Shown here: piece after piece, positions 6,295-41,183 of the stretch
Position numbering within the stretch: the stretch's first letter is position 1
Layout of the letters: each line of letters begins with the position of its first letter
DNA from: Candidatus Omnitrophota bacterium
GTDB lineage: Bacteria; Omnitrophota; Gorgyraeia; Gygaellales; Profunditerraquicolaceae
Direction of reading: 5' to 3'
NCBI GenBank assembly: GCA_023227985.1
Contig: JALOCB010000004.1
Location: 7,442 to 71,441, forward strand
Length of the DNA: 64,000 nucleotides
The notes under the pieces: generated by a model
What the model was told of the DNA's origin: nothing
What the model saw: the letters and a program-made list of their open reading frames with translations, nothing else
Databases searched by the model: none
Made by a program: the position numbers and the translations under genes

Positions 6295-7080
6295 TTAAGA
6301 CAAGGGCATTTTATCAAAAATATATTCCCGCATCAACAGCACATAACCTATCCCGCCCGATCCTTTTATCTTCAAAGGGATCTTGCGCTGATCGGCGCTG
6401 ATCCATATTTCAAACCGGCTGGGTGAGCTCTGAAAATGATAGGATTTGAATGTGCCTGCGGGAACAGTCACATCTTCCATGCCGGTGAACTGTATTTCAA
6501 AACTCTGAGTGGGCAGGTTAGCCTTGAATGTCCAACCCTGCTCCAATTTAGCCATTCGCCTTACGCAATATGGCAATAATATGGCGTTCTGAATCGGGCC
6601 GTTTCGCTGGATCTCAGTCTGCTGCGGTTTATTCTTGCCGACGAATTTAGTTATGACCAGATGATATTTTTGCTGGTCATAATCCTCGATGATCTGTTCC
6701 TTTTTAGGCCAGGATAAAATATCCCGGACTACCTTCAAAGGCAGGTACGTATCCGGGTCTCCGTAGATCATCTCCTGGTCGACAAAATGAAAAAGCTCGG
6801 TTTTAAAGCTGATCTGATTTACGGTTTTGCCGTTAAGCTCTACCTTTGCCAAGTGATGGAATTCCGCCTTGCCCAGCCGGACATTGCCCATTTTAACGTC
6901 ATAAATGATCTTCTCGCCGACGCGTTCGGGGAATTCCTGCTTTTTTGTTTCCGTTTTTTTCACCGGCGCTGCCCCTGCGGGGCCATGCCGGACTGCCTTC
7001 TCCAGCACCAGTATGATCAGGACCGCAAACAGGGCTATTAAAAGTAATACAGTGTATTTACGCATCATTAATTGCGGCAT
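6295..7080 (-). CDS. hypothetical membrane-anchored protein (possibly DUF3108-like)
   Basis: Has an N-terminal transmembrane anchor (VLLLIALFAVLIILVL). No catalytic motif was recognised. Length is 261 aa. Confidence 0.4.
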   Translation of the reverse strand: MPQLMMRKYTVLLLIALFAVLIILVLEKAVRHGPAGAAPVKKTETKKQEFPERVGEKIIYDVKMGNVRLGKAEFHHLAKVELNGKTVNQISFKTELFHFVDQEMIYGDPDTYLPLKVVRDILSWPKKEQIIEDYDQQKYHLVITKFVGKNKPQQTEIQRNGPIQNAILLPYCVRRMAKLEQGWTFKANLPTQSFEIQFTGMEDVTVPAGTFKSYHFQSSPSRFEIWISADQRKIPLKIKGSGGIGYVLLMREYIFDKMPLS

Positions 7081-7542: not shown

Positions 7543-8499
7543 CTATCTCAGATGCACGATGTCCCCGGCCATGAATTTCTCCACTATCCCGGAATCCCTG
7601 CGCACCAAAAGCCCTCCGTCCGAATCAATATCCAAGGCCTGGCCTTCCAGATGTTCTTTACGACAGGCCAGTTTTATCCTGCGGCCAAGGGTAATATTAT
7701 ACCCGCGCCATTTATCCAATATTGTCGCGCTGCCTTTTTTGGCAAAGATACCGTAGTTCTCCTCGACCCTGCGCAGGATCTCTTTTAAAAGCTCCTGCCG
7801 GTTGACCTCTTCTTTCTTCTCTTCTTTCAATGAAACGGCCCCCGGGACCAATTCTTCCCGGCTGTTATTCACGTTCAGGCCGAAACCGATTATCACAAAA
7901 TTAGCCGCATCGATCTCGCCTTTAAGCTCGGTCAATATCCCGCCTAATTTCTTTCCGTTGGCCAGGATATCATTCGGCCATTTTATCTGTGTTGTAACCC
8001 CGGCATACTCTTTTATCCCTTCACAGATACTTACCGCGGTCATTAAGGTAAGCACGGGTATCTGGCTGGACGGTATATCCGGCCTTAATATAAATGTGCA
8101 ATAGATGCCTTTGTATCTCGTGGATACCCAACTGCGGCCCAGCCTGCCTCTGCCTTTGGTCTGATATTCCGCGATAACCGCGGTGCCTTCGGCAACGCCC
8201 TGGCTGCATAATTCCATTGCCGCGTCCATTGTAGAAGGCAAATGGTCGTAATAATGGATCTTGCGGCCGATAAATTTTGTTCCCAGGCCTTCGGCTATTT
8301 CCGCGGGATACAATCTGTCCGGGCAGGATAAGATACGGTACCCCAAATGCGGGATCGCGACTATATCATAACCGTCATCCCTCAGTTCCTGGATGTGTTT
8401 CCACAAAGCCTGCCGGGTCACTCCCAGGTGCCGGCTTATATCTTCCCCGGAAATATATTCGGTTTTTTTTCGTAAAAGCCCGAGTATCTTATCCTGCAT
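7543..8499 (-). CDS. birA: bifunctional biotin-[acetyl-CoA-carboxylase] ligase / biotin operon repressor
   Basis: The N-terminal helix-turn-helix (ISGEDISRHLGVTRQALWKHIQELRDDG) is followed by a BPL catalytic domain (GKGRGRLGRSW, KWPNDI) and a C-terminal SH3-like domain. Confidence 0.85.
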   Translation of the reverse strand: MQDKILGLLRKKTEYISGEDISRHLGVTRQALWKHIQELRDDGYDIVAIPHLGYRILSCPDRLYPAEIAEGLGTKFIGRKIHYYDHLPSTMDAAMELCSQGVAEGTAVIAEYQTKGRGRLGRSWVSTRYKGIYCTFILRPDIPSSQIPVLTLMTAVSICEGIKEYAGVTTQIKWPNDILANGKKLGGILTELKGEIDAANFVIIGFGLNVNNSREELVPGAVSLKEEKKEEVNRQELLKEILRRVEENYGIFAKKGSATILDKWRGYNITLGRRIKLACRKEHLEGQALDIDSDGGLLVRRDSGIVEKFMAGDIVHLR

Positions 8500-8557
8500 A
8501 TGGCCTCAAAGATTATCCTGTTGTCAGCTGTTTATTCAACCGGAGGGCAAGAAAGAT

Positions 8558-8965
8558 CTAAAAATGCAGTTCCATGGCATGCGTGGGACAAACCTTTACG
8601 CAGAGCTCGCAGGCAATGCATTTCTTCTCATGGAAGAGTATTTTACGGGTCTGGGGATCGACCACCAGCGCCTGGGCCGGACAAATAGGCACGCATAAAC
8701 CGCAATCCGTGCATTTAGCGGTATTACGGATAATATCCTCTCCCAAAGGCTGCATCTTTACTCCGGATGAATTCAGGTATTCCAGGCCTTTCTTGAAATC
8801 ATCGGACTGTCCGATCAATTCCAGGACCATCAACCCTTCTTCCTGTGGAGTAACGTAAGCCTTAAGGATATTAAATTTGAGGTTATAATCCTTCACTAAC
8901 TTGTAAACTATCGGCTGGTCAACCAGGCGATGCGGGAAATGAAGGACTATTCGTTTTGTGGTCAT
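8558..8965 (-). CDS. NIL-domain 4Fe-4S ferredoxin (homocysteine-biosynthesis partner)
   Basis: The sequence runs MTTKRIVLHFP...NIL domain... followed by two CxxCxxCxxxCP ferredoxin motifs. The likely start is the internal Met whose ATG overlaps the stop codon of the upstream NifU-like gene as ATGA. The track ORF is extended to 9061. Confidence 0.7.
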   Translation of the reverse strand: MTTKRIVLHFPHRLVDQPIVYKLVKDYNLKFNILKAYVTPQEEGLMVLELIGQSDDFKKGLEYLNSSGVKMQPLGEDIIRNTAKCTDCGLCVPICPAQALVVDPQTRKILFHEKKCIACELCVKVCPTHAMELHF

Positions 8966-9235: not shown

Positions 9236-10438
9236 TTACTCTATCGGTCTTTCTTTCAGCGGTTTAAAGGTATACCCGGAATCCTTGCCGGGTAAAGGGC
9301 TTACTGCCTCACTGAGCAGAAAATCCCCTTTTTTGATCCAGGCCTTTAATTCTTCGGCAATCTCTTTAGCCTTGGAATAACTGGAAAGAGCTCCAGTAGG
9401 AACATCCTTGCCCTCAATGCTGATCTTGCCGGATTTCAGCTTTTTATAACTTACCTCGCCCAAAGAACCCGGAACCAACTGGGGATAGGCTTGGGAATAA
9501 TCCACTATCTGGGTATAGATATCCTCATCCTTTATCGCGGCATAAGCTGCGATCTCTTCGTTCAATATAGGTATAGGCACTCCTATACCCACGGTCAGGG
9601 TCGCGCCATAGCCCAGCATGCTCGTCCCTCTTAGCCATTCGGCCTTCATTTGTTTCAGGTCGCCGATGACCGCAATAGTCCCCGCCCCTGCGGTCGGCGT
9701 GCCGTTATTCTTACGCTGAACGCCAGGATTGTGCTGGGTCCCGTGCCAGGCGATATACCCCACTCCGCCGCCCAGGAATATCCTGGTGCCCACGCCTATG
9801 GTCTTATAACACGGGTCTTTCAATAAAGGCGAAAGCTGGCCGGACGAGGAATAATTGGCATTGCCCATATTCGGCTTTAACGCGCCCATATAGGTGTAGA
9901 TCATTTTATCCGAAAGATTTACCGCCACATTATAATTCTGGTAACAATTGCGTATATTAAAAAGCACTGCCTCATTAAGGTCCTTGAGGTTGATCCAGGT
10001 CTCCAGCTTCCTGCGCGGATAACAATCAGTTCCGTAGGCAGACGCCTCCAGCCGCAGGTCTTTTCCCTCCAGCAATTCCTGAAGCACATGTCCGCCGCCG
10101 TATTTGAACTCGCCGGGATATACCTTGTTGCGGGGATCATCATCCGGCAAAGCAGCCGCCCCCAGATAAACATCCGCTGCGGCGAACCCGGTATAAGCCG
10201 GCACGTCATTGAGCTTGCAGACGCCGGCGCCCAGCTTTATCCTGGGTTTTGAGTGGCCTATATTAAAATAAGCTCCGGAAGAACACATCGGCCCGAAAGT
10301 GCCGGTAGTAACCACGTCCACTTCCTGGCTGGCCTTCTTAAGCCCTTTTTTATCCACCAGATCTATGATCTCTTCGGCGGTAACCACCACTACTTCGCCG
10401 GTCTTGATCTTCTGGTTTATTTCAGCAATAGTCTTCAT
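9236..10438 (-). CDS. COG1900/DUF39 family homocysteine biosynthesis enzyme (L-aspartate-semialdehyde sulfurtransferase-like)
   Basis: The 400-aa protein has the DUF39 architecture. It pairs with a NIL-ferredoxin gene, as in the Methanosarcina MA1821/MA1822 Asd-independent homocysteine pathway. A GGAGG ribosome-binding site lies 9 nt upstream of its ATG. Confidence 0.7.
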   Translation of the reverse strand: MKTIAEINQKIKTGEVVVVTAEEIIDLVDKKGLKKASQEVDVVTTGTFGPMCSSGAYFNIGHSKPRIKLGAGVCKLNDVPAYTGFAAADVYLGAAALPDDDPRNKVYPGEFKYGGGHVLQELLEGKDLRLEASAYGTDCYPRRKLETWINLKDLNEAVLFNIRNCYQNYNVAVNLSDKMIYTYMGALKPNMGNANYSSSGQLSPLLKDPCYKTIGVGTRIFLGGGVGYIAWHGTQHNPGVQRKNNGTPTAGAGTIAVIGDLKQMKAEWLRGTSMLGYGATLTVGIGVPIPILNEEIAAYAAIKDEDIYTQIVDYSQAYPQLVPGSLGEVSYKKLKSGKISIEGKDVPTGALSSYSKAKEIAEELKAWIKKGDFLLSEAVSPLPGKDSGYTFKPLKERPIE

Positions 10439-10475
10439 TTATCTTGCGCCTCCTATAAACCTTTAATTAACCAAT

Positions 10476-10504
10476 ATTATACCAAATTAATGGCTTTTAA
10501 ACAA
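10476..10504 (-). promoter_or_regulatory. sigma70-like promoter for the homocysteine operon (-35 TTGTTT, 17-nt spacer, -10 TATAAT)
   Basis: The minus-strand sequence reads TTGTTTaaaagccattaatttggTATAAT, about 40 nt upstream of the COG1900 ATG and immediately downstream of the hppA terminator. Confidence 0.4.
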
Positions 10505-10512
10505 ATAAAAAC

Positions 10513-10548
10513 AAAAAAGGCAGGGCGTTCGCTCAGCCCTGCCTTTTC
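10513..10548 (-). terminator. Rho-independent terminator after hppA (bidirectional-looking)
   Basis: The sequence aaaaaaGGCAGGGCgttcgctcaGCCCTGCCtttt has an 8-bp GC-rich stem flanked by an A-run and a T-run. It therefore works on either strand. Confidence 0.7.
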
Positions 10549-10570
10549 CGTTAGGAATAAACAGTTTTAT

Positions 10571-12700
10571 CTATTTAAACAACGAGTTAGAGATGATGAA
10601 CGCCGAGAAAACGATCGACACCATAGACATCAGCTTGATCAGGATGTTCAAAGACGGCCCGGAGGTATCTTTGAACGGGTCGCCCACGGTATCCCCTACT
10701 ACGCCGGCTTTATGGGCCTGAGAGCCTTTTCCGCCGTGGTGGCCTTCCTCTATATATTTCTTGGCATTGTCCCAGGCGCCGCCGGAATTAGCCATCATTA
10801 TCGCCAACACGAAACCGGTGACCGTGGCTCCGCACAAAAGCCCGGCAACCGCGTTAACCCCTGCCAATAACCCCACGATGATCGGGGCAGTGATAGCCAA
10901 TAAAGACGGCAGGATCATTTCCTGCTGCGCGGCAGCGGTGGCGATATCCACACACCGGGCATAATCCGGCTTGGCTTTGCCTTCCATCAAACCGACTATC
11001 TCCTTGAACTGCCGGCGGACCTCTACGACTATTTTCCCGGCTGCCCTGCCTACCGCGCGCATTGTCATCGAACAAAAAAGGAACGGCATCATTGCGCCGA
11101 CGAACAACCCAATCAACACATTGGGGTTCATCAGGCTAAGATCCAGGTTGAAGTCGATGCCTCTTTGCTGCACGGTCATAATAACCTGGTCCCGATATGC
11201 GGCGATCAAAGCCAAAGCGGTCAAAGCAGCTGAGCCGATGGCAAACCCTTTGCCTGTGGCGGCTGTGGTATTTCCTAATGAATCCAGGGCATCGGTCCTT
11301 TTCCTTACTTCAGGAGGAAGATGCGACATCTCGGCGTTACCGCCGGCATTATCCGCGACCGGGCCATAGGCGTCAGTGGCTAAGGTGATCCCCAGCGTGG
11401 ACAGCATGCCTACAGCCGAGATCGCTATGCCGTAAAGGCCGATGTTGAAATCCTGCGCGCCGCCTGATAAAAAGAAACTAGCCATTATAGCAATACAAAC
11501 CACTAATACCGGTATAGCTGTAGACATCATACCCACCGCCAAACCGCTGATTATTACAGTAGCCGGCCCGGTTAGCGCTGAATCGGCGATAGTTTGGGTC
11601 GGTTTAAAACCGCTGGATGTATAGTATTCAGTGACCAAGCCGATGATCACCCCGGCGATCAAGCCGGAAAGAACCGACCAGTAAACCCCTATATGCTCCG
11701 CCCCCAAAATATGCCTGATCAGGAAATAAGAGATTATTGCCACGATCAAAGAGCTGGTGAACACGCCTTTCCTCAAAGCGGCCAACAACACTGACTGACT
11801 GGCGTTTTCCTTGCTCTGGACGAAGAAAGTCCCGATTATCGAAGCGATAACCCCTACTGCCGCCATAACCAGGGGCACGGTGACCCCGGCAAGGCCCAAT
11901 CCCGCGGCAACGCCTAAAGCTGAAGTGGCGACTATGGAACCGACATAAGATTCGTAAAGATCGGCGCCCATACCGGCAACGTCGCCGACATTATCGCCGA
12001 CATTATCCGCTATAACCGCGGGATTTCTCGGGTCATCTTCCGGTATGCCTGCTTCCACCTTGCCTACCAGATCGGCTCCGACGTCAGCCGCCTTGGTGAA
12101 GATACCGCCGCCAACGCGGGCAAAAAGCGCCTGAGAGCTTGCGCCCATGCCGAAACAAAGCATTGTAGAGGTGATCGCGGCGATCTTATCCATTCCAATA
12201 ACAACCGGGTGGGCCGTATAATACCAATCAAGAAAATAATACCAGATACTCAAATCCAACAGCCCCAAACCTACCACGGTCATTCCCATTACCGCGCCGC
12301 TGGAAAACGCGCAACGCAGGCCGGCGTTCAGGCTCTTTGTTGCAGCGGCAGCTGTGCGGTTTGAAGCCTTAGTGGCTATGGTCATGCCGATAAAACCGGA
12401 AAGCCCGGAAAAGAACCCGCCGGTCAAAAAAGCGAACGGGACGAACATAACCAGGTACTTCATATACGCCAAGGCAAGCAGTATGAAAAAAACTACAAAA
12501 AAGAACACGGCTACGCCTATGTATTGCCTCTTCAGATAGGCCTGCGCGCCTATCCGGACCGCCAAGGCGATCTCTTTCATTTTATCCGTGCCTTCATCCA
12601 TCCTCAATAAAGATACCGCCAAATAGAAAGCAAATCCCAGAGCTAGAATCGAACCCACAGGGGCAAGCAACAACAGATCAAAATGCATACTTTCCTCCAT
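10571..12700 (-). CDS. hppA: membrane-bound proton/sodium-translocating pyrophosphatase
   Basis: Contains [27 protein letters not shown] and [12 protein letters not shown], which are H+-PPase signatures. The protein is 709 aa long with about 16 transmembrane helices. Confidence 0.92.
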
Positions 12701-12815: not shown

Positions 12816-15800
12816 CTACGCTTGGGCTTCTTTTTGCTTCTGCTTCTCTTCGAGTATCTTCGCGGCTACCTCAGCAGGGACTTGCGCGTATTTATCGAAT
12901 TCCATGGAGGCATTGGCCCTGCCGCTGGAAAGCGAACGGAACCCGGTGGCATAACCGAACATCTCGGAAAGCGGGGCTTCCGCGTCAACGACCTTCTGAT
13001 TGCCTTTCATCTCCATCCCCAGCACCTTTCCTCTGCGGGAACAGATATAGCTGATCACGCCGTTGACGTATTCCTCAGGGGTAGTGACCTCCAAAGACAT
13101 TGACGGTTCAAGCAGCACAGGGCTGGCTTTCATGAACACCTTCTTAAAACAAGCTATTGCCGCCAGTTTAAAAGCCAGTTCCGAGGAATCCACGTCGTGG
13201 AACGAACCATCCAGGAGGTTGATCTTTATATCCACAACAGGATACCCCGCGTAAACACCGTTTTTCATCGCCTCAACAACGCCCTTTTCTATTGCAGGGA
13301 AGAACGAGCGGGGAATAGCCCCGCCTTTTATGCTGTTGATGAATTCAAACCCTTTGCCCGGCTCATTGGGGGATATCTCAAAAACCACATGGCCGTATTG
13401 GCCGCGCCCGCCGGATTGCTTTATATGCTTATACTCATCCTTAGCGATGGCCTGGATAGTTTCGCGGTAAGCCACCTTGGGTTTTCCTACTACCGCGTCC
13501 ACTCCAAACTCGTTCTTCAGCCGGTCAACGATGATCTCCAGGTGCAATTCGCCCATACCGGTAAGCACTGTCTCTTGGGTCTCCTGATCGGATTGCACGA
13601 TAAATGTCGGGTCTTCTTCAGTAAGCTTGGCCAGACCTTTACCAAGCTTATCCTGGTCAGCCCTGCTTTTCGGCACGATACTTAAAGAAACCACAGGCAC
13701 CGGGAACTGGATCGTCTCTAACAAAACCGGGCTGTCCATATCGCTGAGCGTATCCCCGGTCACGGTATTTCCCAGGCCGATCACCGCCACGATATCTCCG
13801 GCAAAGGCATGCTCTTTTGGTTCGCGCTGATTCGCGTGCATCTGCAGGATGCGGCCGATCCTTTCTCTTTTGTTCTTGGTCACATTCAAGACATAAGTGC
13901 TGTTGTCCAACCTTCCCGAATAAACCCGCACATAAACCAGTTTACCCATATGCGGGTCGGTCTGGACCTTGAAAGCCAGACCGCAAAAAGGCTCATTGCT
14001 GTCAGGTTTACGCTCTATCGAGTTTTCCGTATTATCAGGGCTGGTCGCCTTGACCGCAGGGACATCCAGCGGAGACGGCAGGAACATATTTACCGCATCC
14101 AGAAGCTTTTGCACTCCCTTATTCTTAAAAGACGCCCCGCAAAGCACCGGAACAAGTTTATTCGCCACAGTCCCCTTACGGATAACTCTTACCAGTTCTT
14201 CTGTAGTCACGGAATCCGGCGATTCCAGGTACTTTTTCATCAACTCATCGTCGAAAGCCACTGCCCTCTCCAGCAGGATATGCCGGTATTTAGCGGCGCT
14301 TTCCTTATATCCCTCGGGGATATCTTCGATCTTATATTCCTTGCCCATTGTTTCATCGTCGTAAATATAGGACTTCATTTCGATCAAGTCGATCACCCCG
14401 CGGAATTTATCCTCGGCGCCCAAAGGTATCTCCAAGGCTGCCGCGTTAGCTCCCAATATTTTTTCGATCCCGGTCAATACAGCGAAAAAATCCGCTCCGG
14501 TGCGGTCCATCTTATTCACAAAGGCGATCTTGGCTACATTGTATTTATTCGACTGTCTCCAGACTGTTTCCGACTGCGGCTCAACCCCGCCTACAGCGCA
14601 AAAAAGCGCAACCGCGCCGTCAAGCACGCGCAAACTGCGCTCCACCTCAACAGTAAAATCCACATGGCCCGGTGTATCAATGATATTGATCCGACAGTCT
14701 TTCCAGAAACAGGTAGTGGCTGCCGAAGTAATGGTGATCCCTCTTTCCTGCTCCTGCTTCATCCAGTCCATCTGGGCCTTGCCGTCATGAACCTCGCCGA
14801 TCTTATATGATTTCCCGGTGTAATACAGTATACGCTCTGTGGTGGTGGTTTTCCCGGCGTCGATATGCGCCATAATCCCGATATTCCTTACTTTCTGCAG
14901 TTCTATTTCCGGGGCAATGAATACTTTAGGCTTTGCTTCTACGGCCTCGGCGGGCGCTTCTTCCAAAACAGGCTCGGCCGCAGGGTCCGGGATATCCGGC
15001 GCGGCTTCCGGAACAGATTCCGGAATAACAGGAATCTCTCCTGCCGGTTGAACTAACGGCTTCTCATCTTCTGCGGGAGCGATTGGTTGAGGTTCAGGCA
15101 CAGATTCCGCAAGGACTTGGGGGATCTCCGTCCTTACTTCTTCAACTTTAACCGGGGACGGAACGGACTGGCGCTGGACCTGGGCGTATAAATCCTTGAT
15201 CATCGCTTCTTTTCTTTCCAGCGCCTTGTCTTTTTCCCCTAATTCCTCTTCCAACTTGCTGTATTCTTCATTAAGACTGTTAAAATCTTTCTTGGAGATC
15301 CATTCGCTTTCCTCCAGGTCTTTCCTCATCTTCCGCACGGTACGAGAAAGCTCCTTGGCTTCATCGGCCTTAGCCTCCAGGTCTTTCAACAGACGGGCTA
15401 TCTGATGGCGCATCTTCTCCATCTCTTCGGCCTTGGCCTTGTTCTCATCTTCAAGCTTGCTGTACCTCTCAGCGGCTGCCCGCAAATCCCGGTTCAGATC
15501 CACGTTCTTGGAATATTCCAACACCAGTTCTTTTTCTTTCTGAAAAAGCACGTCCTTGTTCTCTATCGCCTCTCTTTTTATTTTATTGGCATCCTCTTCA
15601 TTGCGATCAAACCATTCTTTGCGCTTGAGCAGCTCTTCCTTAAACCCTGCCTCGGATTTCCTGGCGGCATCCAGGTTTTTCTGCAACTCAACGCGATCGG
15701 CATTTATTTTTTCCAATTCAGCGCTAAGACCGGCAGCCTGTTCCTGCAGTTTGGTTATCCGCGGATCCTGAACCGGGGCCTTTTTCTTGTTTTTATCATC

Positions 15801-15881
15801 AGCTGCCGGGATAGTCATAAAATACCATCCCAGGCCGATAACTATAAAAAGAGCCAATATCCCGATCAACATGTAAGTCAT
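12816..15881 (-). CDS. elongation factor G fused to an N-terminal transmembrane helix, coiled-coil and Pro/Glu-rich linker
   Basis: The 1021-aa ORF is continuous. Residues about 4-24 are hydrophobic ([17 protein letters not shown]). Residues about 40-235 are K/E-rich and heptad-like, consistent with a coiled coil. Residues about 236-320 are P/E/A-rich. Residues about 325-1021 are a full EF-G: G1 [10 protein letters not shown]3 DTPGH and G4 NKMD, with domains II-V through to ...[17 protein letters not shown]. No in-frame stop codon and no ATG/GTG/TTG start with a ribosome-binding site is found at the junction. Confidence 0.8.
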
Positions 15882-15927
15882 AATGCTTCTCCGGACTTAT
15901 ATATAGGAATAGAAAATACTTTCTTTA

Positions 15928-15956
15928 AATATACTACATTAACCGTTTACTTTCAA
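15928..15956 (-). promoter_or_regulatory. candidate sigma70 promoter for the TM-EF-G gene (-35 TTGAAA, 17 nt, -10 TATATT)
   Basis: The minus-strand sequence reads TTGAAAgtaaacggttaatgtagTATATT, about 45 nt upstream of the ATG at 15881. Confidence 0.4.
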
Positions 15957-19489: not shown

Positions 19490-19503
19490 TTTCGCCTCCC
19501 TGT

Positions 19504-19965
19504 TCATTTCAAATGACGCGGGGTAAGGTCGACCGCCTCTTCGACCTCCATTACTATCATATACTGCGGCTTGGGGAACGCCGCCTCCGGATGCCGGCCG
19601 GCGCTTTTTTCTTCCCGGAGATCCCGGATTATCCGCTGGCTTATCTTTACCGCCACCTTTTCCTCCCAAAGCCTGGTAATATTCTCCGGGAGCTGGTTTA
19701 TTTTGACCACCCTGGCTTTTCCTTTAAGGCAATATCCCTGGAAGGAATGCTCATCAGCGGCAGTGATGTTCATCCGGGGATTCTTCTTCAGGTTGACGAA
19801 AGTATGCTTTAAGTAAAGATCCAAAAGATATACCCTGCCGGATTTATCCAGCTTGACTATGCTCTTGCAGGAGCTATTGACCCCGCCATTGTGATCAATG
19901 GTCGAAACGATCACAAAACTCTGTTTCTTAAAGAAATCGACTACTTCCTCGGAAAGGGCGCGCAT
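19504..19965 (-). CDS. pyridoxamine 5'-phosphate oxidase-like FMN-binding split-barrel protein
   Basis: The protein of about 150 aa has a PNPOx-like fold signature (FVIVSTIDHNGGVNSS...). The start position is uncertain. Confidence 0.55.
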   Translation of the reverse strand: MRALSEEVVDFFKKQSFVIVSTIDHNGGVNSSCKSIVKLDKSGRVYLLDLYLKHTFVNLKKNPRMNITAADEHSFQGYCLKGKARVVKINQLPENITRLWEEKVAVKISQRIIRDLREEKSAGRHPEAAFPKPQYMIVMEVEEAVDLTPRHLK

Positions 19966-19970
19966 ATCTT

Positions 19971-20366
19971 TTATTTCACTTCCAGCCGTTGCGAATTCTG
20001 CCAAAGGCCGTGGATGTTGCAATACGAAGAAACCAGGATCGTTCCCGGTTTATCGCTTAAAAAACTAAAGGCGAATTCCGGCCGGGAATAAACAGTGGAG
20101 GCATTCGGCCCCTGGGCGGATTCACCATGGCTGCAGGCCTCGAACCTGGCTATCTGGACCGGGAACTTTTCCCCGTCCGCGAGAAAATACGCCTCGATCC
20201 AGCGGATATGATGCTCTGTGGTGTTAGGATGCGGGATCTCTTTGCCTACGCTGAGTTTTACCTGCACTGCTTCGCCTTTTTTAGCTTCTGTCGCAGCCTC
20301 AATGACCGGGACGTGCTTTTCTTTCTTCCAATCCGCGTTCTGGAATAAATCCTTTAATTCAGCCAT
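19971..20366 (-). CDS. superoxide reductase (desulfoferrodoxin/neelaredoxin class)
   Basis: Contains KHVPVIE...HPNTTEHHIRWIE...C(N)xH, the SOR iron-site motifs. The true start is the ATG 5 nt after the AGGTGG Shine-Dalgarno sequence. The track ORF begins at a GTG inside the upstream palindromic repeat. Confidence 0.8.
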   Translation of the reverse strand: MAELKDLFQNADWKKEKHVPVIEAATEAKKGEAVQVKLSVGKEIPHPNTTEHHIRWIEAYFLADGEKFPVQIARFEACSHGESAQGPNASTVYSRPEFAFSFLSDKPGTILVSSYCNIHGLWQNSQRLEVK

Positions 20367-20376
20367 TTTCCACCTC

Positions 20377-20518
20377 TTGTGTAGAGACACAATACCAGCG
20401 CAATTCCGATTAGCGCTGGGTACAAATTACTATCTCAACACCCGCGCAATTCCGAATAGCGCGGGGTGTCAATTATTACCCCAACACCAACGCTATACCA
20501 ATTAGCGCCGGGTGCTAA
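20377..20518. repeat. 16-bp palindrome TTGTGTCTCTACACAA (sense strand) plus three ACACC...GGGTGT hairpin units, located in the 5' leader of the SOR gene
   Basis: The plus strand reads cttgtgtagagacacaa, followed by ccagcgcaattccgattagcgctgg, acacccgcgcaattccgaatagcgcggggtgt and caacaccaacgctataccaattagcgccgggtg. It belongs to the same family as the arrays at 907..1180 and 35041..35178. Confidence 0.8.
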
Positions 20519-20677
20519 TTACACCTTCTCGAACATATCCTTGCCCACTCCACATTCCGGACATACCCAGGTATCCGGAATATTCTCAAAAGCGGTACCA
20601 GGCTTGATCCCCGCCGCGGGATCGCCAACCGCCGGATCATAAATATAACCGCAGACAGTGCAGCGATATTTTGCCAT
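20519..20677 (-). CDS. rubredoxin (52 aa), missed by the ORF track
   Basis: Reverse-strand translation gives [52 protein letters not shown], with two CxxC pairs and the rubredoxin fingerprint. A GGAGG ribosome-binding site lies 7 nt upstream. The track's 68-aa ORF 20515..20721 is in a different frame. Coordinates are accurate to about 2 nt. Confidence 0.85.
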
Positions 20678-20686
20678 AGCCCCTCC

Positions 20687-21871
20687 TTAGATTTTCCCGG
20701 CGAATGATCTGCCGAATTCATAGCACGCGTTCAATTCATCAGTGTCCGGGACGAATTTAGCCGAAATAGAAGGCACTGCCAGCTCTATCCCTGAAAGCTT
20801 CACCACGTCTTCTATCTCTTTAACCGCGCCGCCTGCCCAGCCGAAAGACCCGAATACGCCGGCGATCCTGTTCTTGGCTTTAAAACCTTTGACCAGTTCC
20901 AGAAAACCGGAGATCTGCGGGAGCATATCATTGTCGTGCGTGGATGAGCCGAAAAGAAAACCCCGGGCATCGAGCATTTCAGTGATCACCTCGGTCCGGT
21001 CAGCCTGGTTTATATCAAAAAGCTGCACTTCCATCCCGGAATCGATCAACCCCCTGGATATGGCTTTGGCCATTTTCCCGGTCGATCCCCACATGGTTTC
21101 ATAGACTATCACTGTTTTGGCCGATGGCTTCTGGCCGGCCCAACCAAGGTAAGCTTTGATTATCTGAGCGGGATCGCTGCGCCAGATAAGCCCATGGCTG
21201 GGGGCGATCATTTTTATCGGAATGTTCATCTTCTGCACTTCTTCGATCTTGCGCAAAACCAATCCGCTTAAAGGCCAGAGGATATTGGCGTAATATTTCC
21301 TGGCTTCCTCCATTAAAACAGATTGATCCACCTGGTCGTTAAACCTGGCGGAAGTGGCGTAATGCTGGCCAAAGGCGTCGTTGGGCATAAGCATCTCGTC
21401 TTCCGGGATATAAGTGAACATGCTGTCCGGCCAATGCAGCATTGGAGCTTCCAGGAAAACAAGCCTGCGGCTGCCTAATTTTATCCCGTCGCCGCTTTTA
21501 ACCGCCTGAAAATCCCAGTCAGCGTAATAATGCTTATACAGGCCTTCTTTGCATTTCTGCGTTCCCAGCACTTTGGCCCCGGGGCATAATTTCATCAACT
21601 CCGGCATTGCCCCGGAATGATCGGTTTCCACATGATTGGCTATAACATAATCTATCTTTGCCGGATCGATCACTTCTTTGATCCTGGCGATGAATTCCGG
21701 AGCGAAAGCGGGCAGGACAGTGTCGATCAGCGCGATTTTGTCATCAACAATAAGATAAGAATTATAGGTTGTCCCTCTTTTAGTGGTGTAGGTATGGCCG
21801 TGGAAATTGCGCACGTTCCAATCCACCACGCCGACCCAATAGATCCCTTTCTTTATCTCCTGCGGTTTCAT
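20687..21871 (-). CDS. flavodiiron protein (rubredoxin:O2/NO oxidoreductase, FprA/ROO type)
   Basis: The 394-aa protein has a metallo-beta-lactamase-like diiron domain (HVETDHSGA...) and a C-terminal flavodoxin domain (TVIVYETMWGSTGKMA). Confidence 0.88.
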   Translation of the reverse strand: MKPQEIKKGIYWVGVVDWNVRNFHGHTYTTKRGTTYNSYLIVDDKIALIDTVLPAFAPEFIARIKEVIDPAKIDYVIANHVETDHSGAMPELMKLCPGAKVLGTQKCKEGLYKHYYADWDFQAVKSGDGIKLGSRRLVFLEAPMLHWPDSMFTYIPEDEMLMPNDAFGQHYATSARFNDQVDQSVLMEEARKYYANILWPLSGLVLRKIEEVQKMNIPIKMIAPSHGLIWRSDPAQIIKAYLGWAGQKPSAKTVIVYETMWGSTGKMAKAISRGLIDSGMEVQLFDINQADRTEVITEMLDARGFLFGSSTHDNDMLPQISGFLELVKGFKAKNRIAGVFGSFGWAGGAVKEIEDVVKLSGIELAVPSISAKFVPDTDELNACYEFGRSFAGKI

Positions 21872-21872
21872 A

Positions 21873-22565
21873 TCAGGGCTCCTTTACAAATTGGCTCTTA
21901 TCCGCCCCGCACACCGGACAACGCCAGCTATCAGGAATATCCTCAAACAGCGTGCCTGGAACTATCCCGGAATCCGGGTCACCCAGCGCGGGATCATATA
22001 TATAATTACATACTTCGCAGCGGTATTTCTGCCCGGCCCCGGGGATCTCCTGCTTATCCTCGCCCTTAATAAAAGTCGGGGCTGACTGCGGGGTTGTCCC
22101 GCGCTTGACCTTATGGTAATAATCATAGGTCATGGGCACGGCTTCCTTCAACAATTTCGATGCGGTTATCTCCCCCAGAAAAAGGGTATGCGTGCCGCAA
22201 TCCAATTCCTTGACCACCTTTGCTTCAAGATATGCCAGGGTATGCTCTAAAACAACCGGGCATCCGGAATCCAGCGCGGAGAACTGCACATTCTCAAATT
22301 TATTTATTTCGCGCCCGCTCTTAAAGCCGAACTTGCCGATAAGGTCCAAAGGGCAGTTTTGGGTAAGCACTGATACCGTGAACCTGCGGCTTTCCCGGAT
22401 GAACTCGTGGGTAAGATTATTCTTATTGATGCTTACCGCTATAGTCGCGGGCTCGCTGGTGATCTGAAATACGGTATTGGCGACCTGGCCATTAGTCCGG
22501 CCATTTTTATAAGAACAGACTATATACATCCCGTAACTAATATTATGCAGGACGCTAAGATCCAT
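21873..22565 (-). CDS. high-molecular-weight rubredoxin (flavin reductase-like domain fused to a C-terminal rubredoxin domain)
   Basis: The N-terminal region of about 170 aa is a flavin-reductase-like FMN-binding domain. The C-terminal sequence is [47 protein letters not shown], which is a rubredoxin domain. Confidence 0.8.
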
Positions 22566-22579
22566 ATAACGCTCTCCTT

Positions 22580-23536
22580 TTACAGCCCGACATCCTTAAT
22601 TACTTTTTTTACCGCCTCTGCCGAATTCCTGAACGCCTTTTGCTCGGACTCGTCCATATCCAATTCCAAGACCTGCCGGACCCCGCTTTTGTTGACTACC
22701 GCCGGAAGGCTCAGGTATACATCTTTAACCCCAAGATATCCGTTGATCAGAGAAGAAACCGGCAAAATGGCGTTTTCATCATTGATGACCGCCTGGGTGA
22801 TCCTGACCAGCGCAAGGCCTATGCCGTAAGAGGTTTCGCCTTTGCGCTCGATTATCTTATACGCCGAATCCCTTACCTCGGCGAAGATGGAATTGAATTC
22901 GTCCTCAGGGCGGCAGATATGGTTATTCGAACATACCGAACAATAATTCTTAAATAGCGCCCCGCCGATCATCGCCTTGCTCCAGACCGCGAATTCGCTG
23001 TCCCCGTGCTCTCCCAGGATATAGGCGTGGATATTATGCGGATCCACCCCGCAATGTTTGCTTAACAGGAAACGAAAACGCGCGGTATCTAAAACCGTGC
23101 CGGAACTCATCACCTGGCCGGCAGGCTTTCCGGAGATCTTATAAGCGGCGTAAGCCAGGATATCCACGGGATTAGTTACTACAAGTAAAAGGGCGTTCGG
23201 CGCGTGCTTTATGATCTCCGGGATCATCCGCTTAAACAGGCCCGCGTTATCCCTGACCAGATCGATCCGGGATTGTCCGGGCTTTTGTTTGCTGCCCGCG
23301 GTTATAACCACAATGTCGGAATTCCTGATATCCGGGTAATCGCCCGCGATCACTTCTACCGCCGGTATATACGGAGCGCCGTGGGAAAGGTCCATTACCT
23401 CGCCTTCCAGCCTCTTGCGGTCCAGGTCCACTATCACGATCTGCCTGGCCAGCGCCCTGCTCATTAAAGCATACGCATAGCGCATGCCTACGTTGCCGCA
23501 TCCGATTATCGAAACCTTGGGTCTAAGATCATCCAT
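22580..23536 (-). CDS. ldh: L-lactate dehydrogenase
   Basis: Contains a Rossmann GCGNVG motif, GEHGDS, a catalytic His region, and Gln at the substrate-specificity position (KQKPGQSR). There is an unusual Cys-rich insert ([10 protein letters not shown]). The start is probably the internal Met (MDDLRPKV). Confidence 0.8.
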
Positions 23537-23550
23537 AACGCCCTCTTTCT

Positions 23551-24435
23551 CTAAACATCCACGCCTATCCATTTACGTATCGCCAGCCCGATCAGGAAGT
23601 TTATACCGGCGATCCCCAAACTTATACCTGCCATTTCCATAAATCGCGCCTTGAATTTCAAACCTTTCGCTACCGAGATATAAAAAGTAAAAATAAAGAT
23701 CGCCAGCAGCGCGAAAAGAACAACCAGGCTTAAACAAACAAATATATTCTTGAAAATCAAATACGGCGAGATCAATAAAGCCACGGTAAAACAATAGGCG
23801 ATCCCGGTATAAATACTGGCCTTTAAGGGATCCTTCTTTGTTTCCTCCTGCTTGGTGGAAAGGTATTCCGAAGCAGCCATAGATAGAGCCGCGGCGATCC
23901 CGGTGATCAATCCGACTATAGCAACCAGGCGGGTTTTCTGCAATGCCAGGCTGAAACCCACCAGCGCGCCGGTCAATTCCACTAACGCGTCATTTAGCCC
24001 GAGAACCACGGAACTAACATACATCAGGCCTTCTTCGTCTACCAGGTCGATAAGTTCTTTTTCATGCGCTTCCTCATCATCGATGAGCCGGGAGACCGCA
24101 GGTGATACGTCCCTTAATTTAACATAGAAATCCTGAGCCAGGGCCTCTGCGTTCTCTAAAAGTTTCAAGCCAAAGGTGATCCCGAAGATCCTGGCTACCC
24201 AGACATAAAATAATATCTTTAACCGGTCCGGCTCGACATCCTCGCCGGAAATACCTTTCCAGAATTCATAGTGCGACAATTCATCCCGGGATATCTTTTC
24301 CAGGATGGCTGCCCGCCCTTTATCCTTCAGCGTTTGCCCAACTTGATGATAAATAAAATACTCGGTTATTTCATTTCTCTGGGCCTTCAGGACATTCTTT
24401 TTTAATTCCTGCGTCAGCATGTTCCTTTTTGGCAT
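23551..24435 (-). CDS. VIT1/CCC1-family iron transporter with an N-terminal ferritin-like domain
   Basis: The N-terminal ferritin/rubrerythrin-like four-helix region (EYFIYHQ...ELSHYEFW) is followed by a VIT1 membrane domain. Confidence 0.7.
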   Translation of the reverse strand: MPKRNMLTQELKKNVLKAQRNEITEYFIYHQVGQTLKDKGRAAILEKISRDELSHYEFWKGISGEDVEPDRLKILFYVWVARIFGITFGLKLLENAEALAQDFYVKLRDVSPAVSRLIDDEEAHEKELIDLVDEEGLMYVSSVVLGLNDALVELTGALVGFSLALQKTRLVAIVGLITGIAAALSMAASEYLSTKQEETKKDPLKASIYTGIAYCFTVALLISPYLIFKNIFVCLSLVVLFALLAIFIFTFYISVAKGLKFKARFMEMAGISLGIAGINFLIGLAIRKWIGVDV

Positions 24436-39616: not shown

Positions 39617-41183
39617 TCTTCCTCCTGTTTCTTAATACCACCGCTCCCAATAAACCCGCCAGGATCAGGATAAAGATATCGCCGTAACGCGTATAAAAAG
39701 TCAAACCATAACCCCCTGTCGATAAAAGCGCGGTTTTATGGCCATCAATGAAGATATTTCTTCCCCGGCCATCCCGGATAACATTAAATGCCTTCCCTTT
39801 TGGCGCAATAAATTCGGATATCCCGGTGTTCGCGCAGCGCGCCACAGGCACCCTGTTCTCTACTGCCCGGAACACAGCGCAAAGGCTGTGCTGAAAGGAA
39901 GCGGGTGTATGCATATACCAGGCGTCATTAGTAATATTCACCAGGAAACCGGCGCCCGCGCGGACAAAATTACGGGATAATTCCGGGAAAACATCCTCAA
40001 AACAAATCAATACCCCGAATTTGCTTTTTGCTTTGTTCGCGCCGGCGATGTCAAACAAGGTATATTCCCTCCCGAAAGATATCTCGCCGATGGGCACTAT
40101 CGTATCCAAGAACGGCAGGACTTTGCGTAAAGGGATGTATTCGCCGAACGGCACAAGATGCAGTTTATCATACCTCTGTTCCAATATGCCTTGCCGGGAG
40201 GTCAAGACAGCGCTGTTATAATAAGAATTGCCCCGGAGAGTTACCGCGCCTAAAAGCAGCGGCAGGCTGTTTTCGCGGCAGAACTGCCGGACTATCTCAT
40301 AATAAACCGGGTCTGCTTCCAATATCACCGGCAAAGCCGCTTCCGGCCAGACAACTACGTCGGGATTGTCCCGGACTGCCTTACGGGTGATATCCAGGTA
40401 TTTATTGATTATGAAATCCTTGGTGCCACTGCTCCATTTCAATTCCTGGGGAATGTTGCCTTGGATGATCGCGACCTTAAATGAGTTAATATTTAACGGC
40501 TGGGGGCCGCGGTTTAATTTGTAGAAACCGTACGCGAATGCGGCTATCAGGCATAATATCGGAACAGATAATCCCTTGATCCTCGCGCTAACCGGCAGCC
40601 GCTCGCTTCCGGCAGACGCCCGCTTAACGCATACCGCGTAAATAGCGACGTTCGCCGTCAATATCAGGAATGAAACGCCCCATACCCCGGTAATATCCGC
40701 GATCTGGATGATCGGCAGGTTTAAGCATTGGCTGTACCCGGTCAATGCCCAGCCGAACCCGGTCAAAAGGTCGCTGCGCAGGTATTCCAAAATCACCCAG
40801 AAACCAGGGACCAGAAGTATTGCCGAATTCCGATGTTTAGAAAAGAAATACGCGCAGGCGGCTCCGAATACCCCCTGGTATAAAGCCAGGTACAAAAGCA
40901 TAAGCGCAAGGCCAAGCCCGGTTACATAAGCCAGCCAGTAAACGGTCGCCAGCCAGAAAATAATCCCGCCGGCATAGGCGATCAAAAAAGCCTTAACCGG
41001 GGCTTTCCCGTCTATCGCAACAAATAAAGGAATAAAACCGAACCAGGAGACGAGCCAGAATATCCCGTTAAAAAATGGCAGGCAAAGCAGTATTGCGGAA
41101 AAAGAAGACAGAACAAAAGGATTAAAGACAAATCTTTTTATCACCGGCCGATAAACCAGCTGTTTTTCTAAGCGCCGCAGCAT
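39609..41183 (-). CDS. lnt: apolipoprotein N-acyltransferase
   Basis: The N-terminal polytopic region is followed by a CN-hydrolase domain with E...K...C ([11 protein letters not shown]). Length is 524 aa. Confidence 0.85.

Follow-up and report, generated by a model that had tools for sequence, protein, structure and literature searches.

Elongation factor G (EF-G) is among the most conserved and best studied of all proteins and is viewed as diffusing freely through the cytosol. Why, then, would a bacterium encode it behind a membrane anchor? The question is raised by a 64,000-nucleotide stretch of DNA (the window) from a Candidatus Omnitrophota bacterium (GenBank assembly GCA_023227985.1, contig JALOCB010000004.1, positions 7,442 to 71,441), in which a single open reading frame (ORF) on the minus strand (12816..15881) encodes a predicted transmembrane helix, a long coiled coil, a disordered linker and a complete EF-G. 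We refer to proteins of this build as the long form. A first reading made from the letters alone (the sequence-only reading) had proposed a genuine fusion and named an assembly or frameshift error as the alternative. Here, we find that the long form is a real fusion, translated as one gene, and that it is conserved across the phylum Omnitrophota. The full statement, a membrane-tethered EF-G paralogue with the architecture, the origin and the role near the membrane described below, is in our judgement probably correct, while its architectural and evolutionary part taken by itself is nearly certain.

Conservation and translation of the fusion

The ORF, whose coordinates include the stop codon at 12816-12818, was confirmed to run without interruption through 1021 amino acids. 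A Shine-Dalgarno-like GGAG (15889..15892) is located 7 nt 5' of the ATG at 15881-15879; these and all other features of the gene given below are on the minus strand. On contig Ga0378408_0000352 of JGI metagenome 3300037067, from which the window derives, the identical product was called at 1018 amino acids, using the second methionine (Met4) as start. In a full-length homology search, the best 120 clusters listed were all 986-1172 amino acids long and 57-100% identical to the query, most of them covering at least 93% of it. Of these 120 homologues, 119 combine a hydrophobic helix close to the N-terminus (in the first ~30 residues) with a charged, proline-poor middle and a P/E/A-rich tail. Scanning GTDB genomes gave 79 loci, nearly all titled Candidatus Omnitrophota, with a few labelled Planctomycetales, Planctomycetia or Deltaproteobacteria. 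ORF reconstruction yielded about 70 long genes with a transmembrane start in about 70 GTDB species genomes, and a scan of JGI metagenomes added about 40 further long forms among the matches listed. The sequence-only reading thus described the architecture correctly, and the window gene is not a single case: related genomes and metagenome-assembled genomes (MAGs) carry the same fusion, uninterrupted in more than 100 lineages and spread across the phylum.

Ratios of non-synonymous to synonymous substitution (dN/dS) were calculated for 11 close pairs and ranged from 0.05 to 0.31 for the transmembrane segment, 0.07 to 0.18 for the coiled coil, 0.15 to 0.56 for the linker and 0.02 to 0.06 for EF-G. 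Since the ratio is below 1 in every segment, the upstream region is translated in this frame and is under selection. At the junction, the window protein reads K-P-K-V(GTA)-F-I(ATT)-A-P-E-I-E-L-Q-K-V(GTA), and no ATG, GTG or TTG is present ahead of the methionine immediately before the G1 motif, as had been pointed out from the codons GTA and ATT at the matching positions. Where the canonical-length Omnitrophota EF-G described below (the short form) has its initiating methionine, 16 residues before G1, long forms carry proline (35 of 77) or valine, alanine or isoleucine, and only one of the 77 has an ATG. A Shine-Dalgarno-like motif precedes the upstream start in 29 of 76 cases and an internal candidate start in 1 of 77, and no internal start or Shine-Dalgarno sequence at the junction is conserved across the 77 long forms. 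With a single such case in 77, an internal start that yields free EF-G as a conserved feature was rejected.

Three observations could nevertheless be taken to mean that the upstream ~325 codons are outside the product, either because an error of assembly or a frameshift error joined two genes or because translation truly begins internally. The nr database holds a 685-residue 'elongation factor G' (MBP6919385.1) for the orthologue in JAGOOP01, which implies an internal start; nr entries of 696 residues share a 90% cluster with the long form P0066; and a homologue of the N-terminal part exists elsewhere as a separate stand-alone gene. Against this, the frame is uninterrupted in more than 100 independent assemblies, dN/dS is far below 1 across the N-terminal part, and neither a start codon nor a Shine-Dalgarno sequence is conserved at the junction. 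Moreover, the 685-residue call would start at the methionine before AHIDAGKTT and lose the first beta-strand (VRNIGI) of every EF-G, and the stand-alone homologues are 25-40% identical, have a different conserved neighbourhood and never adjoin an EF-G gene. The number of assemblies and the dN/dS values exclude the merger by assembly or frameshift error, and the orthologues, the purifying selection and the lack of a conserved internal start support a single translated fusion. Set against the refuting conditions named in the sequence-only reading, the fusion stood.

In two loci, L007 (about 9125) and L123 (about 10090), an in-frame TAG follows soon after G1. The positions differ, and L007 has substitutions in invariant motifs near its TAG; these codons look like sequencing errors or pseudogenes and not like a shared feature. 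A mobile or viral origin was also considered and rejected, as no long form was found on IMG/VR viral contigs. The one relative on such contigs (L172, IMGVR_UViG_2837002679_000011) is a partial match to the EF-G family at 7824-8939 (39% identity, query residues 328-806) which is not a long form.

Identity of the EF-G part

Residues 323-1014 matched the EF-G model TIGR00484 end to end (profile positions 2-690 of 691) with 1046.3 bits against a cut-off of 659.4. All five Pfam domains (GTP_EFTU, EF-G_D2, EFG_III, EFG_IV and EFG_C) are present, in keeping with the five-domain protein proposed originally. Based on Pfam boundaries, the G domain with its G' insertion and the G1 motif spans residues 330-602 (14076..14894), domain II residues 631-714 (13740..13991), domain III residues 726-800 (13482..13706), domain IV residues 801-920 (13122..13481), with both tip loops (SGGRGQYGH and HDVDSS) intact, and domain V residues 922-1007 (12861..13118). 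A Foldseek search with the AlphaFold2 (AF2) model returned solved EF-Gs as all of its best matches (target TM scores of 0.8-0.9; 52-56% identity in the structural alignment). In a PDB sequence search, the closest entries were canonical dual-function EF-Gs, those of T. thermophilus (865 bits) and E. coli (843 bits).

Of the 120 long forms, 99-100% retain G1, RGITI, DTPGH with its catalytic histidine and NKxD, and 100% have both tip loops of domain IV, GGxGQ[YF]GH and H[DE]VDSS. The EF-G part is thus apparently active, judging by its motifs. In G5, most long forms including the window protein carry GASF in place of GSAF. Long and short forms are fixed for different residues at 12 positions which, mapped onto Pfam domain boundaries, fall in G' (2), G5 (1), domain II (2), domain III (1), domain IV (2) and domain V (4). 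In the window protein these are residues ~534, 550, 584, 693, 699, 775, 824, 861, 941, 964, 992 and 1001, and they include a K/E charge reversal in G'.

Other members of the EF-G family were tried and rejected. EF-G2/EFG II models scored far below their cut-offs (NF009377, 505 bits against 890; NF058620, 492 against 1000), and T. thermophilus EF-G-2 reached only 383 bits in the PDB search. The same holds for ribosomal protection proteins of the Tet(M)/Tet(O) type (NF012153, 371 bits against 775) and for RF3, whose model also scored below its cut-off. In case of spdEFG1/mtEFG1, mtEFG1 gave 571 bits compared with 865 for canonical EF-G, and RRF2mt gave 481. The stretch from G1 to RGITI (47 residues) is presumably as long as its E. 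coli counterpart and would thus lack an insertion in switch I. Such an insertion (KDG) marks the mtEFG1/spdEFG1 subfamily (PMC3150367).

Anchor, stalk and linker

The N-terminal part of the gene (residues 1-325, the N-module) begins with a single transmembrane helix, as had been claimed. The most hydrophobic 19-residue window covers residues 4-22 (Kyte-Doolittle 2.38), and AF2, run on a 72-sequence family alignment (mean predicted local distance difference test score, pLDDT, 75.8), placed the helix at residues 2-22 (15816..15878; pLDDT ~83). Although transmembrane sequences differ widely within the family, 119 of 120 homologues have retained a hydrophobic segment. The flank ahead of it averages 1.4 residues with 0.1 lysine plus arginine, compared with 5.4 in the 20 residues that follow. 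As all of the positive charge comes after the hydrophobic span, the positive-inside rule, satisfied in 119 of 119 family sequences, predicts an N-out/C-in orientation, and the EF-G part of the long form is predicted to lie in the cytoplasm. A cleavable Sec signal peptide and hence an exported EF-G were rejected, since a basic n-region is lacking, the span is 25 residues long on average and the positive charge is entirely downstream.

A basic juxtamembrane segment follows (residues 23-39; 15765..15815) which is rich in lysine and arginine and is modelled as disordered (pLDDT <50). AF2 then predicts a single helix at residues 40-192 (15306..15764; pLDDT ~80-86), a kink at 193-196 and a second stalk helix at 197-235 (15177..15293). 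Between residues 46 and 235 there is no proline, and hydrophobic periodicity has its maximum at exactly 3.50 residues. The heptad signal power in this stretch is 3.07, compared with 0.53 +/- 0.27 in shuffled sequences, and none of 500 shuffles equalled it. For a long heptad helix that is amphipathic and fixed to the membrane by one end, a parallel dimer is the simplest arrangement, and the stalk is very probably a parallel coiled-coil dimer. The K/E-rich coiled coil of the sequence-only reading is therefore borne out by periodicity and predicted structure; what that reading missed is that the region is more than heptads, namely a conserved domain with motifs and stand-alone homologues of its own.

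Two of these motifs are located in the long helix: motif 1, with W90 and the sequence EWFDRNEED, and motif 2, with K115, E118, L119, K125 and V127 and the sequence EYSKNVDL. The third lies in residues 191-215 (15237..15311), the best-conserved segment of the N-module, which with 3.3-3.4 bits per alignment column comes close to the 3.57 of the EF-G part. L203 and E206 are invariant across the family alignment, and W90, K115, E118, L119, K125, V127, E193, W194, K197, F200 and N204 are conserved to at least 90%. The invariant positions, a dN/dS of ~0.1 and the stand-alone homologues rule out that the stalk is a spacer of mere composition, and its three conserved motifs may bind a partner.

The remainder of the N-module, up to the EF-G fold, is disordered in the AF2 model (residues 236-327; pLDDT 33-50), which agrees with the flexible P/E/A-rich linker proposed before. 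The linker (residues 236-322; 14916..15176) is the least conserved segment and varies in length within the family; over residues 241-325 it consists of 22% proline, 19% glutamate, 15% alanine and 13% valine. Pfam, PDB sequence and Foldseek searches with the N-module returned nothing above noise. Homology to RNase Y-type anchors was among the candidates rejected, as neither RNase_Y_N nor any other Pfam family exceeded its threshold in residues 1-325 and only weak coiled-coil noise was seen.

A stand-alone family related to the N-module

Searching 1.84 billion representative sequences with residues 1-325 gave 107 matches, many of them contig-end fragments of long EF-Gs. A separate set consists of proteins of 209-242 amino acids that end 10-25 residues past motif 3 and share the transmembrane helix, the basic stretch and the three motifs. 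A follow-up search brought this stand-alone family to 40 members of 146-230 amino acids, all but one at least 197 long, some of which are labelled as proteins of Omnitrophica WOR_2 or Candidatus Omnitrophota. The signature motifs W-x-[ED]-K, EFSxN[VL]xL and EW[VI]xKxE[FY]xxL are all found both in the N-module of long EF-Gs and in the stand-alone proteins, where motif 3 reads EWVSKKEYxxLK. With the stand-alone proteins as tblastn queries, the N-module of nearly every long EF-G was matched at 25-40% identity and E-values down to 7e-31. Given a stand-alone transmembrane coiled-coil family with the same motifs, the long EF-G is best described as having captured a pre-existing membrane coiled-coil protein. 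The stand-alone Omnitrophota proteins (P0317, P0341, P0348, P0365 and others), which are annotated as hypothetical, have the same transmembrane helix, basic stretch, heptad stalk and motifs as the long form, and differ from it in having no linker, no EF-G and a different neighbourhood.

This neighbourhood comprises genes for a SpoU methylase, an S4/pseudouridine synthase, DUF3786, DUF3108, the transmembrane coiled-coil protein and aroA, with YebC, RuvC and RuvA further along, and no EF-G gene was found in the neighbourhoods examined. In loci L088-L091 (10001-10693 / 10001-10633), the stand-alone gene (209-230 amino acids) always follows the DUF3108 gene. The window has a DUF3108 gene as well (6295-7080), which is followed by NadA, and it contains no stand-alone copy. 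Looser transmembrane coiled-coil paralogues of 285 and 173 amino acids, ending in ...QEEYNRLKxKL..., are encoded in L051 (14038-14895) and L040 (6440-6961) behind a thioesterase gene, 1-1.5 kb downstream of the long EF-G.

A short sister and the origin of the long form

Omnitrophota also encode a short form, a canonical EF-G of ~698 amino acids with a stop codon closely upstream, which makes up at least 120 clusters of 75-100% mutual identity. Both forms are found together in at least six genomes or contigs (CP070797.1/L058, L052, L080, CAYVYJ01, CAZVQU01 and L087). On the complete chromosome CP070797.1 the order is short EF-G, SpoU methylase, peptidoglycan-binding protein, long EF-G, the two EF-G genes being on the same strand with two genes between them (L058, 6121-12967). 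In the CAYVYJ01 and CAZVQU01 MAGs they are on separate contigs, and L087 (ENA contig k141_244664) carries both. The SpoU methylase, which occurs near the stand-alone gene as well as at L058, may be a trace of the ancestral fusion locus.

In a bootstrapped neighbour-joining tree for which str-operon EF-Gs from other phyla served as outgroups, the long forms were monophyletic (92/100), as were the short forms (98) and the two combined (100). The branch of the long clade measured 0.234 compared with 0.171 for the short clade, so that the long form has evolved ~37% faster. Another tree, rooted on an Auribacterota short form, nested the long clade within the short forms. A single origin of the long form is therefore robust, while the timing of the duplication depends on how the tree is rooted.

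Around the Omnitrophota EF-G genes, whether long or short, no gene for S12, S7 or EF-Tu was found in the 10 kb on either side. As a positive control, every EF-G of another phylum from the same scan was flanked by S12/S7(/EF-Tu), which indicates that the test works. By its tree, context and motifs, we conclude that the long form is a duplicate of a non-str EF-G joined to a captured membrane coiled-coil module.

The extension in public records

The 1059-residue long form P0066 (L028, JAGOOP010000001) falls into the same 90% cluster as nr entries (P0382-P0384) that are 685-696 amino acids long and named 'elongation factor G'. One of them, P0384 (MBP6919385.1, 685 amino acids), is recorded on a contig of 189,664 bp, the length of JAGOOP010000001. 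Judged by its length, this call would start at about the methionine preceding AHIDAGKTT and omit the first beta-strand. In at least this case, the deposited NCBI record appears to start the gene internally and to hide a 370-residue extension. Trimming of starts may explain why the extension has escaped notice.

Genomic surroundings

The long EF-G gene of the window has a Gly-zipper lipoprotein-like gene upstream and a H+-pyrophosphatase gene downstream, and genes for S12, S7 and EF-Tu are absent from the 64-kb window; the non-str setting between a lipoprotein gene and hppA had been recognized at the outset. A promoter of its own had also been suggested. The site is present (TTGAAA-17-TATATT, 10/12 matches; 15928..15956), in the 190-bp gap behind the lipoprotein-like gene, and is weak evidence, since such sites in the region are no more frequent than in shuffled sequence.

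Nearly all convincing genes of the window are on the minus strand, GC skew is negative throughout, and the 64 kb contain no tRNA genes and no Rfam matches. SecA (41168-44119), Lnt, MurJ, LeuRS, UvrC and ComEC are encoded as well. At ~19500-23600 (L001, 3344-6620) there is a cluster of flavin reductase-rubredoxin, flavodiiron protein, rubredoxin, desulfoferrodoxin, a PNPOx-like protein and glutaredoxin, an oxygen-stress cluster typical of anaerobes that the close relative L002 has conserved. In L014, a translational-GTPase-like match (19891-20403) some 9 kb away from the long EF-G is 37% identical to the G domain of EF-G across 176 amino acids. Giant genes adjoin several loci (L003, 13925-23126; L004, 13881-21764; L091, 1-3372): a product of more than 3371 amino acids (Methyltransf_28/HATPase_c) starts ~260 bp past the PPIase gene that follows the long EF-G, and a gene of 14,958 amino acids runs off L091. 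An SMC-like gene in L086 (20790-22097; 1617 amino acids) contains intein-splicing and LAGLIDADG homing-endonuclease domains.

Proposed role at the membrane

Based on these features, the N-terminal helix would insert N-out and leave the remainder of the protein in the cytoplasm. As a parallel dimer, the stalk of ~190 residues would jut ~25-30 nm from the membrane (~23 nm for the 153-residue helix if straight and ~6 nm for the second helix), and the disordered linker of ~90 residues would add ~8-35 nm and free the EF-G head to move. The head might thus sample a zone ~35-65 nm from the inner membrane, with two heads offered per anchor. We propose that it acts as an ordinary ribosome-dependent GTPase, in translocation and/or recycling dependent on ribosome recycling factor, confined to ribosomes near the membrane, and that it would raise the local supply of EF-G for ribosomes engaged in co-translational insertion or secretion. 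Normal EF-G function is proposed because all catalytic elements are intact and strongly selected. A translocase, recycling or rescue role at the membrane, as suggested initially, fits the intact motifs and the predicted cytoplasmic topology. Most Omnitrophota cells are only ~0.2 um in size (PMC10066038), and 94% of Omnitrophota proteins of at least 10,000 amino acids have transmembrane helices or signal peptides (preprint 10.64898/2026.06.07.730766). With the giant proteins so predominantly membrane-anchored or secreted, membrane-engaged ribosomes should be unusually important and long-lived in these cells. That the long form serves membrane-proximal ribosomes is, in our view, about evenly balanced between right and wrong.

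Several points weigh against this proposal. No EF-G entry was found in the metaproteome supplements searched for the V. archaeovorus enrichment, and the neighbourhood of the long EF-G varies by lineage, so that no conserved context offers a functional clue. The tie to membrane-bound ribosomes and to giant proteins is one that we infer, and a partner of the conserved stalk motifs, which may exist, is hypothetical. The ~37% faster evolution and the 12 fixed differences, including the change from GSAF to GASF, are a further concern, as the activity of the long form could be modified. Finally, 'membrane-proximal ribosomes' would be too narrow a description if the long form were the only EF-G in most lineages.

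Related designs are known for other proteins. RNase Y and EzrA combine an N-terminal transmembrane helix, a cytoplasmic coiled coil or disordered region and a functional domain; the long form follows the same design of N-terminal anchor and helical stalk, with a translation GTPase as its cargo. Among ribosome-linked GTPases, LepA/EF4 has been reported at the E. coli membrane and FtsY has a membrane-binding N-terminal region. In both, association is peripheral or reversible, whereas the long form has an integral transmembrane helix in the same polypeptide and its GTPase is EF-G. Mitochondrial translation is likewise membrane-organised, although in mitochondria it is the ribosome and not EF-G that is tethered. 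The pairs spdEFG1/spdEFG2 and mtEFG1/mtEFG2 provide a precedent for EF-G paralogues that split translocation and recycling. Compared with canonical EF-G (EFG I; FusA of T. thermophilus and E. coli), residues 323-1021 of the long form are the same complete five-domain protein, set apart by the 322-residue transmembrane, coiled-coil and linker module, the non-str locus, GASF and the 12 clade-specific substitutions. Other non-str EFG I copies (P. aeruginosa EF-G1B; 'nSTR', Margus et al. 2011, PMC3150367) are also duplicated and faster than their sister but, unlike the long form, are soluble and of canonical length. Two surveys of the EF-G family (PMC3150367; PMC4342817, Atkinson 2015) mention no transmembrane segment, membrane association, coiled coil or N-terminal extension, and a full-text literature search gave no description of a membrane-anchored EF-G, in line with the original remark that no membrane-tethered EF-G had been described. 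The C-terminal part is thus EFG I by sequence and fold and an extra non-str copy by context, and its anchor is unprecedented.

Alternative explanations

The alternative that survives best, though we consider it unlikely, is that most Omnitrophota, the lineage of the window included, have the tethered form as their main or sole EF-G of this type. The short sister would then be retained only in early-branching lineages, and the anchored factor would carry out essentially all translocation and recycling. When metagenomes were scanned with a short form as query, the matches listed included about 40 long but about 6 short EF-Gs of the Omnitrophota type, although the scan patterns recognise both kinds about equally well (118 of the 120 long forms and 112 of the 120 short ones). 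A close relative of the window's lineage (EF-G domain 95% identical; L096) has a 1.87-Mb contig from which the long form alone was among the matches listed, and the five GTDB genomes seen with both forms (L052, L058, L080, L065+L072 and L081+L079) fall in basal long-form branches. The EF-G part of the long form is moreover under purifying selection of housekeeping strength (dN/dS 0.02-0.06). Such a role would be feasible because the cells are small and the tether reaches most of the cytoplasm: by geometry, a reach of 40-60 nm would span ~78-94% of the volume of a sphere with a radius of 100 nm. On the other hand, the gene order S12-S7-EF-G-EF-Tu-S10-L3 is stated for named complete Omnitrophota chromosomes (preprint 10.64898/2026.06.07.730766). 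Going by this one preprint statement, a further str-operon EF-G probably exists in the phylum and was possibly missed by pattern scans. Short forms are also numerous, with at least 120 clusters, and the absence of a form from a contig, which holds among the matches listed, is no proof.

Carried to its end, this alternative would make the tethered protein the principal EF-G in most Omnitrophota, and elongation and recycling would be physically arranged along the inner membrane of cells 0.2 um in size, a picture that we hold to be rather doubtful. If true, bacteria would have a parallel to the membrane-coupled translation of mitochondria in which the factor is tethered rather than the ribosome. 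The arrangement may then have evolved together with giant membrane or secreted proteins that hold ribosomes at the translocon for hours, and the dimer would use its stalk motifs to attach to a partner at the membrane, for example SecYEG, YidC or FtsY.

It is improbable that the anchor serves storage or regulation, with EF-G parked at the membrane, inactive or in reserve, until freed by proteolysis in the Pro/Glu linker. A similar proposal has reportedly been made for membrane-associated LepA in E. coli. In its favour, constraint is weakest in the linker, which is exposed and disordered, and a free short EF-G is also present in some genomes. Yet only the composition and approximate length of the linker are kept, with no conserved cleavage motif; no protease gene is consistently linked to the long EF-G; and the stalk motifs and strong purifying selection exceed what a parking device would need.

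Still harder to sustain is a purely structural ribosome tether or hibernation anchor that docks through the affinity of EF-G for the ribosome and does not catalyse translocation. A ribosome tether was among the ideas of the sequence-only reading, GTP-form EF-G has high affinity for the ribosomal factor site, and the long clade has fixed substitutions in G', G5 and domain V. A static tether, however, would have no need of an intact translocase and would block the factor-binding site, whereas the DTPGH histidine, G1-G4 and the domain IV tip loops are 99-100% conserved and the EF-G domain is under very strong purifying selection. That the upstream ~325 codons are outside the product altogether, by gene merger or internal start, is so improbable in light of the junction and the assemblies described above as to be negligible.

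Conclusion

In conclusion, we have characterized a membrane-anchored EF-G paralogue of Omnitrophota, and in doing so defined a new membrane coiled-coil module that occurs both stand-alone and fused. For genome annotation, the case suggests that homology-guided start calling may systematically conceal similar N-terminal fusions of core genes in nr. For the organisms themselves, part and perhaps most of Omnitrophota EF-G should be confined to the cell membrane. Selection for such an anchor throughout a phylum implies that bacteria can gain an advantage from controlling where elongation or recycling takes place, and the anchor offers a testable handle on how translation is organised in nanobacteria with giant membrane proteins.

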